A stretch of 8,509 nt of DNA from a virus (taxonomy: Duplodnaviria > Heunggongvirae > Uroviricota > Caudoviricetes), in the IMG/VR virus record IMGVR_UViG_648276669_000009; one strand, written 5' to 3'. The notes below the pieces were generated by a model. It saw only the letters and a program-made list of their open reading frames with translations. It was not told the origin of the DNA and did not search any database. Below, in pieces: positions 2,190 to 8,225 of this stretch; the stretch's first letter is position 1, and every line of letters starts with the position of its first letter. A program made the position numbers and the translations under genes.

Positions 2190-2364
2190 GCTCCTTATCA
2201 CCCTGATTAACTACCAGAACGGCGACGTTCGCCAGATGATTCATTCCTGGGAATATCCGACTTATGACGATGCATGGCGTGATGCCTGTCGTATGGCATA
2301 TTCCCGCAATGACAAACAGGGGCGATTAACCCACAAATGCGCAGTAAAAATCATGGAGGGGTAA
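2182..2364 (+). CDS. Hypothetical small protein (60 aa), translationally coupled to the icd-like gene
   Basis: ATG at 2182 preceded by GGAGG (2172-2176); start overlaps the upstream stop (ATGTTTAA). Product MFKLLITLINYQNGDVRQMIHSWEYPTYDDAWRDACRMAYSRNDKQGRLTHKCAVKIMEG. Function unknown. Confidence 0.5.
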   Translation: MFKLLITLINYQNGDVRQMIHSWEYPTYDDAWRDACRMAYSRNDKQGRLTHKCAVKIMEG

Positions 2365-2366
2365 CG

Positions 2367-2555
2367 ATGTACGAGATTCATATTAAATTGCGTAATGTGG
2401 TAACAGGAGAGGAAGAAAACTTCCACACGATACGTAAATATAAATCAAAAGGAAAAGCGACAAGGGACGCTATCAGGTATACGGAAGAAATTGCGCCGAA
2501 ATATCAATTGCCAGAAGAAGAACTCACAGCATCAGTGGTAAAGGTGAAGAAATGA
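2367..2555 (+). CDS. Hypothetical small protein (62 aa)
   Basis: ATG at 2367 with SD GGAGGGG 5 nt upstream, 2 nt after the previous stop. Lys/Glu-rich product MYEIHIKLRNVVTGEEENFHTIRKYKSKGKATRDAIRYTEEIAPKYQLPEEELTASVVKVKK. Confidence 0.5.
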   Translation: MYEIHIKLRNVVTGEEENFHTIRKYKSKGKATRDAIRYTEEIAPKYQLPEEELTASVVKVKK

Positions 2556-2770
2556 AAAGCCGTTCAATATCCCGTAAAAATAATGGCAGTGGTGAAAAAC
2601 GTTTCTTTGTGCTGGGTTATGCCGTTAATAAGCGCGGGTTAACCAAACATGCACATGCAACGGTATACGGAACAGGGCCGGGCGAAGCTATCCGTCGCGC
2701 AGCCGAAGGGCTGGAAGAGCTGGGAATGACACATTTCAGAGCGTTGAAGGTGACGCAACTTTCCGCCTGA
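2552..2770 (+). CDS. Hypothetical small protein (72 aa)
   Basis: ATGA start/stop overlap with the preceding ORF and a purine-rich SD-like stretch AAGGTGAAG upstream. Product MKSRSISRKNNGSGEKRFFVLGYAVNKRGLTKHAHATVYGTGPGEAIRRAAEGLEELGMTHFRALKVTQLSA. Confidence 0.5.
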   Translation: MKSRSISRKNNGSGEKRFFVLGYAVNKRGLTKHAHATVYGTGPGEAIRRAAEGLEELGMTHFRALKVTQLSA

Positions 2771-2837
2771 TTCCCGAATTATCCACTGATAACTGAATTA
2801 AATTTATATTTCGATCTTAACGGGTCGGGGAGTTTTT

Positions 2838-3137
2838 ATGTCTGAAAAACAGAATATCCGCAATATATACAAAAAAGAATACGCTGGTTTTTTCACGGAA
2901 GATTCCATTGAGAATCTTGAAGATGTAATAAATGTTATTGCGCTCCTTTCAGCATTGACAGGTGAAATTAATACCAGTGAGAGAATGCCAGTGCAAATTA
3001 ATGAAATGGAATCATTAACTAACATTCTTTATCGGGAATTACGAGCGATTAAGTCAGGAATGCATACTTCTGGCGGAATTTTTTCATGGCATAGTGCCGA
3101 AACCGCCGGGATTGCCAAAGCAATAAGTAACGAGTAA
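2838..3137 (+). CDS. Hypothetical protein (99 aa), AT-rich, possible moron / accessory gene
   Basis: ATG 2838 with SD GGGGAG about 6 nt upstream, after a 67-bp AT-rich intergenic gap. Visibly lower GC than the flanking genes. No recognisable motif. Confidence 0.5.
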   Translation: MSEKQNIRNIYKKEYAGFFTEDSIENLEDVINVIALLSALTGEINTSERMPVQINEMESLTNILYRELRAIKSGMHTSGGIFSWHSAETAGIAKAISNE

Positions 3138-3147
3138 TTAATAAAAA

Positions 3148-3172
3148 CCCCACTGCAAAAGGTGCAGTGGGG
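3148..3172 (+). terminator. Stem-loop (10-bp stem CCCCACTGCA / TGCAGTGGGG, 5-nt loop) with a short downstream T-tract; putative terminator or attenuator just upstream of the primase start
   Basis: Perfect inverted repeat read from the sequence. The 3-prime arm overlaps the primase SD region (GGTGGAG 3171-3177), which suggests control of primase expression. Confidence 0.4.
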
Positions 3173-3185
3173 TGGAGTTTTATAT

Positions 3186-5855
3186 ATGAAATCTGACATC
3201 AGAAAAGAGATTATTAACCGTCTTATCCGTGATTACAACTTCAAAGAAGAAAATAACTACCTCCGGTATGGTGTTTGTCCGCAATGTGGAAAGAAAGAGT
3301 TGTTTACCAGCCTTGAAAGGCCGTACATCGTACACTGCGGGCGTGAAAATAAATGCGGTGCAGACCTGCTGACCAAAGAACTTTACCCGGATGTGTTTTC
3401 ATCATGGTCAGATCGCTATATCAGCACGAAAGACGAGCCATATGCAGCGGCGGCAGCTTACCTTCAGGAGGCGCGCAATATTGCTGTGGAGCCGCTGAAG
3501 GGGGCATTTACTCAGGAGCGATACCAGGACAAGGAAAACGGCGAACAGGCCGCTACTGTGCGTTTTACGCTGGCTGACGGCGTGTGGTGGGAGCGCATCA
3601 TAGACCGACCGGAACGCTTCGCTCGCAAGGCGAATTTTTCCGGCAGCTACAAGGGGTTGTGGTGGGCTTATCCGGGAGCGGATTTAAGCAAGGCCAAAGA
3701 AATCTGGATTTGTGAGGGTATCTTTGATGCCATCAGCCTTAACCAGAATGGCATTGCGGCCGTTTCTGTCATGTCTGCCGTAAACTACCCGGATAAGGCG
3801 CTGGAAGAACTGGCGAAGCTGTGCGGTGATACCCCCCGTCCGGTTATCGTGTGGGCGCTGGATAACGGGCGTGCGGGTGAGCGTTACGCGAAAAAACATG
3901 CAGAACGCAGCGCCGAAGACGGCTGGAGAACGGCAGCGGCGTTACCGGGCGAAAACAACAATAAACGCGACTGGAATGATTTACACATCGCCGGAAAGCT
4001 GCGTGGCCATGATGTGAAAAGATACCGTTATTACGGTGATTTATTGTTGGCGAAATCTCCGAGAGATAAGGCACTAATAATGTTTTCCTTTCGTGAGCGA
4101 AAGGAATTTCATTTTCCCTTTGATAACCGTATTTTCTGGTTCAAGCTGGATATTGAGCGCCATATGAAGGCTGTTGAGCGTGTCATTAATGAGCGAAATG
4201 TTGACGAAGATGAAGCGCGCAAAATTGCACTCAAGGAATCCGGCGCTGTAAAAGAAATCGCAAACTGTAACCCAGTGCCGCTTTATTACATTCGAAACAA
4301 TGATACGGATGAAGCATGGTATTACTTCCGCATTACATTCCCGGATGGTGCTACGGTGAAAAACACCTTTACATCAGGGCAATTAACATCCGCATCTGAA
4401 TTTAAAAAACGTCTGTTGCACGTAGCAAAAGGCGGCATTTATACCGGAACGACTACGCAACTTGACGCATTAATAAAAAATGACCTTCCCGCAATAAAAG
4501 AGGTTATTGGTCAGGATTTTATCGGATACAACAAGGCCATTGGGGCATGGCTGTTTAATGATATTGCTGTTTACAAGGGTAAAACTTATGAAATCAATGA
4601 CGAAGATTATTTTGAAATTGATGGCATAAACGCAAAACCATTAAGCGAAAAACCCACATTACAGATTAACTACAAAAAACCGGATGAATTTACAACGTCA
4701 TGGGTGGAAGATCTCTGGCTGGCTTTTGGCGAAAAGGGAATTATTACCCTGGCTTTCTGGCTGGGTTCGCTGTTCAGTGAACAAATCCGGGATAAAGAAG
4801 AATCCTTCCCCTTCCTTGAAGTCACCGGGGAGCCCGGAACGGGTAAATCAACATTGATTGATTTTTGCTGGCGGCTGTGCGGTCGTGACAACTATGAAGG
4901 CGTAGATCCAACCAAAGGATCAGAGGCGGGCTGGAAGCGCACCTTTGGACAGGTCGCCGGATTACCTGTTGTTCTGATTGAAGCAGACCGGGGAGACAAT
5001 GCGCAAAAAAGAGGTGCGTTTGACTTCGATAACCTGAAAAGCCTCTATAACGGTGGCGGTATCGGTGTTCGTGGGGTTAAGGCCAACAATAACAACACCT
5101 ATGACCCGGATTTTAAGGGCGCTATCGTGATTGCGCAGAATGCGCGGGTAAATGCCTCGCCGGCAATTATTGAGCGCCTGATACGCATATACACCGATAA
5201 AAAACGCCATTCACCTGATACCCGACTGGCGGCGAGACGGCTGGAACTCTACCCCGTCGAGAAGGTATCGGGGTTTATTCACCGGGCGGTAAGTCAGGAA
5301 CGGGCGATTATGCAAACGTTCCTGGAAGTATCGCCCTCTGAAACGGAACGCCTTTGCGGATGCGAAAATATTCGCCATCCCCGTATTGCCAAAAATCACG
5401 CGCAACTTATCGCGCTGGTCAGGGCGCTGAAATGCGTTATCGATATCCCGGATGAATGGCTTGATGCCACATGTCTGGAACTGGAACAAATGGCAACGGC
5501 GCAGGTTAAAGCGGCGGCGGCTGACTTGCCAGAAGTGATGGAGTTCTGGGAGGCGTTCGACTTCCTGGACGGCATAACAAAATACGGTGTAAACCATTAC
5601 GGCAAGGGATGCCGCGAAGGGATTGCTATCAGTATTCCGCAACTGGCACAGGCTGCCGCCATTCACCGCGTGGAGATCCGAACCGATCGCGAAATGATTG
5701 AGTTGCTCGGAGCCGGACGTTCCCGACCTTTGACAGGCCGCAAAACCATTCGTAGTGAGGTGTCCAGACAGGCAAACGCCGGAAAAGGAGTAGCCGAAGC
5801 CAGAGAACCAGAAGTACTGAAATGCAGGATATTCAGTTACAAGGAGGGGGCTTAA
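3186..5855 (+). CDS. Replicative primase-helicase, P4 alpha-like (zinc ribbon + TOPRIM primase + D5/SF3-type P-loop NTPase)
   Basis: 889-aa ORF. N-terminal Cys4 zinc ribbon (CPQCGKK...HCGRENKCG), TOPRIM-like motifs (ICEGIFDAISL; LDNGRAGERY) and Walker A GEPGTGKST. ATG 3186 with SD GGTGGAG upstream is preferred over the GTG at 3162 used by the ORF track. The stop overlaps the integrase RBS. Confidence 0.85.
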   Translation: MKSDIRKEIINRLIRDYNFKEENNYLRYGVCPQCGKKELFTSLERPYIVHCGRENKCGADLLTKELYPDVFSSWSDRYISTKDEPYAAAAAYLQEARNIAVEPLKGAFTQERYQDKENGEQAATVRFTLADGVWWERIIDRPERFARKANFSGSYKGLWWAYPGADLSKAKEIWICEGIFDAISLNQNGIAAVSVMSAVNYPDKALEELAKLCGDTPRPVIVWALDNGRAGERYAKKHAERSAEDGWRTAAALPGENNNKRDWNDLHIAGKLRGHDVKRYRYYGDLLLAKSPRDKALIMFSFRERKEFHFPFDNRIFWFKLDIERHMKAVERVINERNVDEDEARKIALKESGAVKEIANCNPVPLYYIRNNDTDEAWYYFRITFPDGATVKNTFTSGQLTSASEFKKRLLHVAKGGIYTGTTTQLDALIKNDLPAIKEVIGQDFIGYNKAIGAWLFNDIAVYKGKTYEINDEDYFEIDGINAKPLSEKPTLQINYKKPDEFTTSWVEDLWLAFGEKGIITLAFWLGSLFSEQIRDKEESFPFLEVTGEPGTGKSTLIDFCWRLCGRDNYEGVDPTKGSEAGWKRTFGQVAGLPVVLIEADRGDNAQKRGAFDFDNLKSLYNGGGIGVRGVKANNNNTYDPDFKGAIVIAQNARVNASPAIIERLIRIYTDKKRHSPDTRLAARRLELYPVEKVSGFIHRAVSQERAIMQTFLEVSPSETERLCGCENIRHPRIAKNHAQLIALVRALKCVIDIPDEWLDATCLELEQMATAQVKAAAADLPEVMEFWEAFDFLDGITKYGVNHYGKGCREGIAISIPQLAQAAAIHRVEIRTDREMIELLGAGRSRPLTGRKTIRSEVSRQANAGKGVAEAREPEVLKCRIFSYKEGA

Positions 5856-5857
5856 AC

Positions 5858-6861
5858 ATGTCGATCAGAAAACTGGATGATGGGCGATGGTTGCTCGATA
5901 TCAGGCCATGCGGACGTAAAGGAAAGCGCGTCAGAAGAATATTTGACAGAAAATCGATAGCTGTAGCAACTGAACGGTACATCATAGCGAACGCCGAAAA
6001 ACGCGAGTTTATACAGGGCTACCGCGACCGGAGAACCCTCAGCGATTTACTGGAGTTGTGGTGGGTTTATCACGGTCAGCACAGGCGAAAGGCAGGCACA
6101 GATAAACAGCAGCTTGGCAAAATCATTAATGAGCTTGGAGCTGACATGTTTGCGGTAGAGCTCGACAAATTAAAAATCATTGCATGGCGATCGCAGAAAA
6201 TTGCGGAAGGGCTAAAGCCGTCCTCAGCAAACAGATATATGAACAGATTATCTGGGATGTTTACAGCCCTGAAAAAGATCGGTTTGTGGGATGCAGAACA
6301 TCCTGTTCACGGTATTCCTGTTCTTTACGTAAGGCAGCGGGAGATGGCCTTTTTATCAAAAAACGAGGTCACATTGTTGCTTGACAGACTGAATGGAGAT
6401 CAACGAAGGGTTGCGCTCTTATGTCTTTGCACCGGAGCTCGCTGGAGTGAAGCCAGCAGATTACACGGAGAGCAAATAGTTCATAACAGAATCACGTTTC
6501 TGGAAACCAAAAACGGTAGAAAAAGAACGGTGCCTGTGTCGCAGGAAATATGTGCTGCCGTAAAAACAAAAGAAACCGGGCGACTGTTTGATGTGAAGTA
6601 CAGAGAGTTTTGCCGGGCATTAAAAAAATAAAACCCGATTTACCGAGGGGGCAGGCTGCGCATGTATTGCGGCATACATTCGCCAGTCACTTTGTGATGA
6701 ACGGTGGCAACATTCTTGCGCTACAAAAAATCCTTGGGCATGCGACAATTCAGCAGACTATGGCATACGCACATTTTGCACCGGATTATCTGGCAGATGC
6801 CATGAGATTTAACCCGGTAGCCAACATAGTGATCACCGAAGAAAAAGAGCCAGCAGAGTAA
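5858..6861 (+). pseudogene. int: Tyrosine recombinase / integrase, phage P2 Int-like, interrupted by a -1 frameshift in an A7 run (reading frame switches at about 6622-6631)
   Basis: ATG 5858 with SD AAGGAGGGGG upstream. N-terminus MSIRKLDDGRWLLDIRPCGRKGKRVRRIF is colinear with P2 Int as I recall it. Box I TGARWSEASRL lies in the first frame; the HxxR motif (HVLRHTFASHF) and catalytic Tyr region (TMAYAHFAPDYL) lie in the -1 frame (6610..6861). The first frame ends at TAA 6629-6631. Joining the frames at the A-run gives ...RALKKIKPDLP..., with the same spacing as the P2 Int junction. Confidence 0.8.
6622..6631 (+). other. A_AAA_AAA slippery heptamer immediately followed by an in-frame TAA; site of the integrase frame change
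   Basis: Codons TTA AAA AAA TAA in the zero frame. A -1 shift reads ATA AAA CCC (I K P) and continues into the catalytic domain. Could be a 1-nt deletion from an ancestral A8, a homopolymer sequencing error, or programmed slippage. Confidence 0.6.
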
Positions 6862-7108: not shown

Positions 7109-7426
7109 GGGGGGGGATGCGCAAAGCGGTTACAACGGTTACAAATTTAAAATCACTTATTTTTGTATTATGTATCAATATATTATAACTGGTCTGATGA
7201 GTTACAAAAGCGGTTACAACGCGGTTACATGTAACCGTTTTGTTAGGTTACAGGCGGTTACAGGTTAAGTTTTTAATTGATTGATAATAAAGTGCTTTTT
7301 GAAACCTGTAACCGTTGTAACCGCAGTGTAACCGCAAAGCGGTTACAAACAATATCCATTAAAATCATGTTGTTAAGTGGTGTTTTTGACTGTTGTAACC
7401 GTTGTAACCGCTTTGCGCACCCCCCA
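7109..7426. repeat. Iteron cluster: at least 13 copies of GGTTACA / TGTAACC in dyad-symmetric arrangement, bounded by a 34-bp inverted repeat and containing AT-rich spacers; putative replication origin and/or recombination arm-site region
   Basis: Perfect heptamers at 7128, 7137, 7212, 7223, 7246, 7256, 7341 (top strand) and 7230, 7307, 7316, 7327, 7394, 7403 (complement), plus degenerate copies. Left arm 7111-7144 and right arm 7393-7425 are reverse complements apart from one extra A at 7117. There is a 16-bp perfect palindrome CGGTTACATGTAACCG at 7222-7237. AT-rich tracts lie at 7145-7200 and 7263-7300. Confidence 0.7.
7173..7185 (+). promoter_or_regulatory. IHF-like site (TATCAATATATTA fits WATCAANNNNTTR) inside the AT-rich spacer of the iteron region
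   Basis: Consensus match read from the sequence. AT-rich DNA produces such matches easily, so this is weak on its own. Confidence 0.3.
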
Positions 7427-7653
7427 CCGGATTATGAGGCAGAGTCCCAAAACAACTGGCCTGACCTCTAACAAAAATGCAACATCAATCATTGATTTTT
7501 TTTGGGGCTGTCAGTCACGGGGAGTTGCCCTGTTGTTTGGCAGAAAAATGAAGTATGTACATGCGCGGCGGGGATGGTAAAAAACGTAATACACGCGGCG
7601 CAGTTGCCATAAAAAATCTCTCAAAAGCACTCTTTTTGACGCTATTGTTCATC

Positions 7654-8042: not shown

Positions 8043-8225
8043 ATGTCTTTCCCTTGCCCGGCCTGTGGCGCTTCAGCCCGCACCCGTGGTCGTTCGTTGG
8101 AAGAACACGAACAAAACATCTACAAAACGTATTACCAGTGCAATAATATTGAGTGCGGGGCCTGTTTTTGTACGCTTGAGTCGTTTGTACGCATCACTAA
8201 GCGCAGGAAGTCGAAAACTTCATAG
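8043..8225 (+). CDS. ogr: Ogr/Delta-family zinc-finger late-gene transcriptional activator
   Basis: 60-aa ORF with SD AGGAG 7 nt upstream of the ATG. Cys spacing C-X2-C-X24-C-X4-C (CPAC...QCNNIEC), and the local sequence CPACGASARTRGR...YYQCNNIECGACF parallels P2 Ogr (CPLCQHAAHARTSRY...YHQCQNVNCSATF, from memory). Confidence 0.85.
   Translation: MSFPCPACGASARTRGRSLEEHEQNIYKTYYQCNNIECGACFCTLESFVRITKRRKSKTS

Follow-up and report, generated by a model that had tools for sequence, protein, structure and literature searches.

The window, that is, the whole 8,509-nucleotide stretch of DNA analysed here, is the early/replication operon of a P4-like satellite and forms part of a chromosomal P4-like satellite of Escherichia coli. 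Directly 5′ of its primase gene lies a small AT-rich gene, ORF99, followed by a GC-rich hairpin. The explanation that we favour, and to which we give about an even chance of being right, is that ORF99 is a specificity factor with old, recombining alleles that occupies the slot held by cnr in P4, and that the hairpin is a separate element of the primase leader, serving most likely as the terminator of an antisense RNA. The anatomy of the two features is well characterised, and it is from this anatomy that we infer their functions. What is new is the definition of a cnr-less lineage, with an undescribed and hypervariable protein family in the place of cnr and, in the same lineage, a conserved and apparently antisense-oriented terminator at the primase start. 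P4-like satellites are present in a large share of Enterobacterales genomes and, to our knowledge, the control of their replication is known only from P4 itself, in the form of Cnr.

The Satellite and Its Early Operon

Islands nearly identical to the window (98–99%) are found in ST131 and other E. coli strains, and the segment 2100–3700 occurs in 76 of 5426 complete E. coli genomes, where it is chromosomal every time. In the window and in its annotated twin (L001), the gene order leads from an integrase through a 350-aa ORF, an AlpA-type HTH gene, a C4/isrK RNA, three small ORFs, ORF99, the primase and a second integrase to ogr/delta, and all annotated genes are on the + strand. The AT-rich 350-aa ORF (1–1053; GC 0.26–0.37, no family match) adjoins the first integrase, as it does in L001 and L003. 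It is followed by the AlpA-like HTH gene (1149–1469) and by a C4/isrK-type immunity RNA (1757–1964) located inside an “Icd-like/Ash” ORF. Within that ORF, Rfam recognises isrK (1770–1851), the C4 antisense RNA (1877–1964, 74.7 bits) and a c4-a1b1 target (1757–1809), and the C4 loop (1919–1929) is complementary to sites on either side of it, as in P4/P1 RNA immunity. The primase gene (3186–5855, + strand) encodes an 889-aa protein of PHROG 1139 with a zinc-ribbon-like N-terminus, Toprim_2/3 and P-loop/DUF5906-like regions. Its translation start (3174–3188, + strand), which is also the RefSeq start, is composed of the SD GGAG (3174–3177), an 8-nt U/A spacer and the ATG (3186–3188). The second integrase, of the Int_N type (5858–6861), and the ogr/delta gene (8043–8225) lie further downstream.

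Capsid genes are unusual in P4-like satellites. The twin L001 nevertheless carries a P2-family capsid gene (423 aa) at its far end, and in L002, L004, L005 and L025 the gene for a 350-aa P2-family capsid protein (PF05125) closely precedes the Icd/Ash-like gene, no AlpA gene intervening.

ORF99 and Its Leader

The first-pass annotation of this DNA had described a 99-aa AT-rich ORF with an AT-rich gap upstream, and this description is accurate: GC is 0.37 in ORF99 (GC3 0.32) and 0.34 in the 67-nt gap (2771–2837), against 0.48 in the upstream small-gene block and 0.49 in the primase gene. ORF99 (2838–3137, + strand) extends from the ATG at 2838 to the TAA at 3135–3137, behind the SD GGGGAG (2827–2832) that lies 5 nt before the ATG, and the same CDS is annotated by RefSeq in near-identical islands. 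Comparison with its homologs establishes ORF99 as a real protein-coding gene, since the frame is open in all of them (94–121 aa), with conservation of the SD and a dN/dS of about 0.3. A minus-strand ORF (2804–3025) was also considered as a true gene and rejected, the substitution patterns fitting the + frame; the antisense open stretches of 57–78 codons are as expected for AT-rich sequence.

The AT-rich leader of ORF99 (2771–2837, + strand) is itself conserved and remains 93–100% identical among close elements, although the ORF behind it diverges. It carries a small hairpin (2812–2827) of five pairs, CGATC-TTAACG-GGTCG with the loop at 2817–2822, whose 3′ side continues into the SD GGGGAG. Pairing in the stem persists although the paired bases differ: CGATC/GGTCG in the window corresponds to CGGCC and CGACC in L002 and L004, and to TGACC/GGTCA in the distant elements L018 and L020. 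This layout, consisting of a stem, an SD, a U-rich spacer and an ATG, is common to the ORF99 leader and the primase leader, and the ORF99-leader hairpin is devoid of a minus-strand U-tract. A consensus scan, which could miss a weak or activator-dependent promoter, found no sigma-70-like + strand promoter in the ORF99 gap or in 2300–3500.

A Small and Undescribed Family in a Fixed Position

The ORF99 family is undescribed. Profile and structure searches with the 99-aa protein, advised in the first-pass annotation, identified neither a family nor a fold. ORF99 has no match in Pfam, PHROGs, NCBIfam, PADLOC or the PDB sequences; Pfam gave no hit for ORF99 (E ≤ 0.1), nor for 40 family members under the looser threshold of E ≤ 1, and tblastn against 50,697 phage records returned no match. 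The family is very small, comprising 69 clusters at 90% identity among 5.8 billion proteins and 14 clusters at 50% identity among 1.84 billion proteins, and a scan of species-representative genomes added just one further locus. The named members are all “hypothetical” proteins from Escherichia, Salmonella, Yersinia, Serratia or Erwinia, and no description of the ORF99 gene, of the primase-leader hairpin or of this type of element was found in the literature.

An ORF99 homolog (26–98% amino-acid identity) occupies the same slot in nine of nine independently sampled lineages and in all close relatives, where it has 94–101 codons throughout. The genomic context of eight distant members (26–57% identity) reveals the same operon and the same order in all eight, i.e., integrase, variable gene, HTH, Ash, two to four small ORFs, ORF99 homolog and primase, with a second Int_N-type integrase in most. 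The primases that follow are of two architectures, either the Toprim_2/3 type present in the window or the Zn_Ribbon_Prim-Toprim_3-DUF927 type of P4 alpha. Synteny of this extent establishes ORF99 as a fixed component of this satellite lineage.

These observations bear on the explanation advanced in the first-pass annotation, according to which ORF99 is a separately acquired, epsilon-like moron inserted between the core block and the primase, while the hairpin terminates or attenuates its transcription on the + strand and, in addition, covers the primase SD. The low GC, the AT-rich leader and a history different from that of the flanks are in line with such an acquisition, and a variable acidic protein would fit interaction with a helper. 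However, when related elements are inspected for the ORF, as had been proposed, it is present at this position in all those examined and is syntenic across genera; ORF99 is therefore not an insertion present in some elements and absent from others. No promoter of its own was recovered in the consensus scan. The low GC, which had been read as a sign of separate acquisition, is seen in all ORF99 alleles, including distant ones (0.35–0.42), and is thus a family trait rather than the mark of a recent import. Considered together with the evidence on epsilon and on the hairpin presented below, the moron explanation appears quite improbable.

In the P2-like phage ESSI2_ev239 (L024), most of the 258-bp gap before the primase is filled by an unannotated ORF of ~72 codons (2745–2960, MLTVTSHASES...), which has no obvious similarity to ORF99.

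Old Alleles Exchanged by Recombination

The part of the moron account that is upheld is that ORF99 has an evolutionary history distinct from that of its flanks, as evidenced by a divergence island, an excess of synonymous divergence and its composition. The island (2845–3200) is sharply bounded, with identity down to 25–60% between flanks at 90–100%, and extends from approximately codon 7 of ORF99 through the hairpin and the SD to the fifth codon of the primase. Synonymous divergence (dS) amounts to 1.0–2.3 for the divergent ORF99 alleles and 0.34–0.71 for the closer ones, compared with 0.13–0.33 for the primase and the upstream ORF, for which dN/dS is 0.0–0.14 (0.27 in one comparison). Such an excess over the flanks argues for old alleles exchanged by recombination and not simply for fast drift. 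Judging from these substitution rates, the ORF99 alleles are much older than the backbone and have been moved by homologous recombination between otherwise near-identical elements. Recombination may be traced within the gene as well, the N-terminal, middle and C-terminal segments being combined differently among alleles.

The contrast with the primase is also seen where two such satellites reside in one strain: ETEC1732 carries them at different sites, and their ORF99 proteins are 32% identical, whereas their primases are 90% identical. Among IMG/VR relatives, the first 405 aa of the primase are 94–98% identical, and ORF99 ranges from 41 to 98% among close relatives. The divergence is unevenly distributed along the protein, as omega is 0.3–0.9 in codons 33–58 against 0.1–0.3 at the ends, and changes in the middle region of the closest ORF99 pairs, although at few sites, are exclusively non-synonymous. 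No linkage was seen between ORF99 alleles and the variable segments in the small ORFs (2236–2560) or in the primase (4480–4630). The small ORFs at 2236–2560 contain two more mosaic segments (65–80% identity in L004, L005, L012 and L016, with flanks at 95–100%), and the whole small-gene block is recombinationally mosaic, less extremely so than ORF99.

Predicted Structure and Role of ORF99

Conserved motifs are found at both ends of ORF99, EYxGFFTED..L.DVIN in the N-terminal part and NILYREL..IKSGMH.SGGIFSW in the C-terminal part, and the middle of the protein (about residues 33–58) is hypervariable. The family is acidic, with a pI of 4.4–6.1 in 40 members and a median of 4.9. AF2 models of moderate confidence (pLDDT 74 and 65) predict a helical hairpin formed by helices 21–43 and 51–73, in which the variable residues would be located at the distal helix ends and in the loop; a second AF2 run with a deeper alignment yielded a model of lower confidence. 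Foldseek searches with the ORF99 model against BFVD and the PDB gave no hit below E = 0.5, and the top PDB fold hit, a lengthened ROP variant (E = 1.7), was discarded as evidence, given that any helical hairpin would match.

These alignments and models suggest an acidic helical-hairpin protein whose conserved N- and C-terminal motifs would hold a constant partner, while the hypervariable helix tips and loop would recognise a variable protein partner. The variable partner would most likely be a protein of the helper or of a competing phage; the satellite’s own replication machinery, with its conserved primase, seems a less likely candidate. We infer that ORF99 acts as a protein-binding specificity factor and is not cargo. 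If ORF99 does bind helper proteins, the allele series would map helper specificity.

Relation of ORF99 to Epsilon and Cnr

In P4, the operon order is epsilon, ORF151, ORF106 and alpha. ORF106 is cnr, the copy-number regulator (PMC8628076), and a gene family that includes cnr is found between epsilon and alpha in 90% of P4-like elements (PMC8628076). The first-pass annotation placed epsilon at the position equivalent to ORF99, but the slot before alpha belongs to ORF106, i.e., cnr (DUF5375), and epsilon is located two genes further up. Like ORF99, epsilon is a small protein of the same early operon; it is involved in helper derepression, and its helper-directed protein binding is the kind of role that the variability of ORF99 suggests. 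No homology was detected between ORF99 and P4 epsilon (PF25738; hhalign probability 0.12%). Moreover, ORF99 and epsilon are distinct genes, because they stand side by side in Serratia L022 and Salmonella L028, where a PF25738 epsilon homolog lies between the ORF99 homolog and the primase. Of the proposal that ORF99 is a small helper-manipulating factor, the helper-directed role is a possibility worth retaining, whereas equivalence to epsilon by position or by homology has to be abandoned.

P4 cnr (ORF106, DUF5375/PF17345) belongs to the same operon and to the same slot immediately 5′ of the primase, and its product is of similar size (106 aa, against 99 aa for ORF99). The two genes are mutually exclusive in the elements examined, with no DUF5375 gene in those carrying the ORF99 family. 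ORF99 could then be a functional replacement of Cnr, namely a protein that represses satellite replication by acting on the primase or initiator, and the shared slot, the similar size, the lack of cnr from every element with the ORF99 family and the 90% occurrence of the cnr-including family between epsilon and alpha would all be accounted for. Nevertheless, ORF99 and Cnr show no homology in sequence or profile (BLASTP E = 8.8; hhalign profile–profile probability 0.12%). Cnr has a near-neutral median pI of about 7 and retains at least 67% identity between genera, whereas ORF99 is acidic and hypervariable beside a primase conserved at 94–98%. In addition, the ORF99 family accompanies two unrelated primase architectures, and the variable segments of the primase do not track the ORF99 alleles. 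A replacement of Cnr in its regulatory function thus seems unlikely, and we retain the specificity factor as the preferred reading of ORF99.

A Conserved Hairpin in the Primase Leader

The perfect 10-bp stem noticed earlier downstream of the ORF (3148–3172) is confirmed. It is GC-rich and formed by CCCCACTGCA (3148–3157) and TGCAGTGGGG (3163–3172) around the loop AAAGG, and it reaches 11 bp with the pair A3147-T3173. In a 76-nt context, the minimum free energy is −22 kcal/mol (z = −3.8); for the 60 nt before the primase ATG, z is −4.9, and none of 300 shuffles folds as well. A stable stem-loop precedes the primase start in all ten lineages and exists in five stem versions with compensatory changes. 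The window has CCCCACTGCA/TGCAGTGGGG; Yersinia L025 has CCCCGCTGCA/TGCAGCGGGG, with an A-T pair changed to G-C; the L002 group has CCCCCTGTA/TACAGGGGG; L018, L022 and L027–L029 have AAGCGCCG/CGGCGCTT; L020 has GCGCCG/TGGCGC, with a G.T intermediate; and L026 has GCGCCAC/GTGGCGC, with A-T. A compensatory series from G-C through G.T to A-T thereby runs across L018, L020 and L026. The lineages sharing the AAGCGCCG stem are not independent of one another, and in L026 the hairpin is clear only after the primase start is moved to MNPIK.

Five of the six Toprim_2 lineages have 13 nt between the stem end and the ATG, in spite of three unrelated stems, and the sixth has 16 nt. In DUF927-type elements, 23–29 nt separate the hairpin from the ATG, and it does not adjoin the SD. 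In elements with epsilon between ORF99 and the primase, the hairpin is located after epsilon and remains next to the primase, not to ORF99. The ORF and the hairpin had been regarded as one unit, and this arrangement dissociates them; it also opposes the view of the hairpin as the terminator of an acquired ORF99. On this comparative evidence, the hairpin stands as an element of the primase leader in its own right, maintained by selection. Such a hairpin is missing both between cnr and alpha in P4 and in ESSI2_ev239, the primase of which is 51% identical.

Two other identities of the hairpin were rejected. It is not a dispersed REP-like repeat, as it is found at this locus alone in E. coli (61 places in 58 of 5426 genomes). 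Nor is it a target of C4/CI-type immunity RNA, for which the sites complementary to the RNA loop are at 1808–1815 and 1998–2006, with none in 2838–3250.

The 3′ arm of the stem had been reported to end in the GGGG of the primase ribosome-binding site. It does abut the SD and shares its G-run, but the core SD GGAG (3174–3177) is outside the stem, one base 3′ of its extended form. Gating of the primase SD by the hairpin, as the moron explanation would have it, may occur, but is only partial in the window. The merging of the 3′-arm G-run with the SD in some alleles is more favourable to SD masking: in L004, for example (...CAGTGGGG-GGGATTTATATATG), the usable G-run overlaps the 3′ arm of the hairpin.

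Polarity of the Hairpin and a Predicted Antisense RNA

On the + strand, the stem is directly preceded by the A-tract AATAAAAA (3140–3147), which on the minus strand reads as the U-tract UUUUUAUU located 3′ of the stem. The 5′ flank on the + strand is A-rich in ten of ten lineages whatever the stem sequence, with A and T in a ratio of about 5 to 1, and the 3′ flank is either the SD or a mixture of A and U. In the 8 nt after the stem, the minus strand has 5–7 T (mean 6.5) and the + strand 0–4 (mean 2.7), the minus strand being the better one in each of the ten lineages. The combination expected of an intrinsic terminator, i.e., a GC-rich stem and then a U-tract, is present on the minus strand (UUUUUAUU in the window). 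The + strand has the stem without the U-tract; its tail is the purine-rich SD in Toprim_2 lineages, and the sequence after the stem reads GGGAGAGG in L002. On the + strand, only the lenient terminator scan flags the window (tail GGAGTTTTAT), which is in favour of the + strand terminator or attenuator included in the moron explanation; the orientation of the U-tract in all ten lineages contradicts it. The hairpin would at best be a weak + strand terminator, and a true one is unlikely.

The conserved polarity, with the A-tract followed by the GC stem and then the SD, makes the hairpin a canonical terminator for the minus strand. Most likely, it would end a short antisense transcript initiated within the first codons of the primase and spanning the primase SD and ATG, the interior of the primase gene being the sole plausible source of minus-strand transcripts. 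A hypothetical antisense promoter can be proposed at 3210–3238 on the minus strand, opposite primase codons 9–18 (TTGTAA, 17 nt, AATAAT). The resulting antisense RNA of ~65 nt, equally hypothetical (3138–3203, estimated ends, minus strand), would be complementary to the primase SD, the ATG and the first codons; it has no family match in Rfam. At the same position and spacing, the promoter reads TTGAAA/AATAAT in Yersinia, TGGTAA/TATAAT in Serratia and TGGTAA/TATGAT in L018 and L028. A promoter-like site with 8–10 matches out of 12 occurs at this position in all Toprim_2 lineages, a conservation confounded by the conserved primase peptide EII.RL..DY.F, the Ile-Ile codons of which force key −10 bases. 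The promoter scan gave one promoter-like hit against 2.9 expected by chance. DUF927-type lineages have a different candidate promoter, a weak one, and in the ESSI2_ev239 homolog the site is absent together with the hairpin. Altogether, termination of an antisense RNA is a tentative assignment for the hairpin, somewhat short of an even chance.

It can also be proposed that the hairpin operates in the sense mRNA only, as an intercistronic stem-loop or translation element, and that no antisense RNA is made. Cleavage in the A-rich tract would then turn it into a protective 5′ end of the primase mRNA (or the 3′ end of the upstream mRNA), and the hairpin would keep the SD free of long-range pairing. 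The constancy of the 13-nt distance from stem to ATG, with three stems of unrelated sequence, speaks for a function on the sense strand and against the antisense one. The second hairpin, placed before the ORF99 SD in the same layout and without a minus-strand U-tract, suggests a general sense-strand design in the operon, and the location of all genes on the + strand is consistent with it. Translation can also be enhanced by A-rich tracts located 5′ of an SD. Yet a purely sense-strand function leaves unexplained why the 5′ flank is A-rich, and not AT-rich, in ten of ten lineages, and why DUF927-type elements have a terminator-like module 23–29 nt from the ATG. We consider it possible, although rather doubtful, that the hairpin functions in the sense mRNA only. 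Antisense and sense roles are not mutually exclusive: besides terminating an antisense RNA, which we continue to prefer, the stem, at its constant distance of 13 nt from the ATG, adjoins the SD on the sense mRNA and may tune or insulate primase translation.

Comparison with Known Control Systems

The copB–copA–repA region of IncFII/R1 is an example of antisense control of plasmid replication. As in the satellite, a small protein gene is located directly 5′ of the rep gene, a terminator in antisense orientation lies in the rep leader, the hairpin loops on the two strands are complementary, and divergent alleles of the control region stand beside a conserved rep gene. A short countertranscript over the rep SD and ATG is a further parallel, but in the satellite it is only predicted, and its candidate promoter is weak and within coding sequence. 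Unlike in IncFII/R1, ORF99 is acidic and matches no regulator family, and the element is a satellite prophage, not a plasmid. By analogy, one can imagine that in this branch of P4-like satellites the Cnr system has been replaced by a plasmid-style module, in which the ~65-nt antisense RNA would block primase translation and ORF99 would be its partner or a second specificity determinant; we give this a low probability. If it were true, ORF99, the hairpin and the first primase codons would diversify for incompatibility or immunity, and this diversification would let several satellites share one cell, as in ETEC1732. The antisense RNA, if it exists, would constitute RNA-based replication control in a phage satellite.

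Two further systems invite comparison. The OOP RNA of lambda is a short antisense RNA with its own intrinsic terminator, situated inside the early rightward operon near the replication genes. In both cases, a canonical terminator opposes a phage operon with genes in a single direction, from which a short antisense RNA would follow; OOP differs in targeting the 3′ end of cII rather than the start of a replication gene, and has no sequence relation to the hairpin described here. In the macromolecular-synthesis operon of E. coli, the internal terminator T1 between rpsU and dnaG keeps primase expression low. T1 resembles the satellite hairpin in being an operon-internal stem-loop placed immediately 5′ of a primase gene; it differs in that it terminates sense-strand transcription and has a U-tract, which the sense strand here lacks.

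Second Integrase and Repeat Array

In most lineages examined (L018–L031 and the window), a second, short Int_N-type integrase (326–333 aa) is encoded directly 3′ of the primase, besides the arm-binding integrase with which the element ends. In the stretches seen, this second integrase seems to mark a P4-like sub-lineage without cnr, sid and psu homologs. In the window, it is split into two ORFs (5822–6631 and 6610–6861) because an A-run (6622–6628) is 1 nt shorter, with A7 in place of the A8 of the intact 1005-bp gene of L001; the gene may be a pseudogene, the A7 tract may be prone to slippage, or the difference may be a sequencing error. The interval from the second integrase to ogr/delta includes, at 7109–7428, a dense repeat array in which CGGTTACA(A) / TGTAACCG occurs at least 14 times, in both orientations. 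The array is flanked by G8 and C-rich runs, has 36-nt inverted arms (7109–7144 and 7393–7428), and looks like an iteron-type origin or a primase-binding region.
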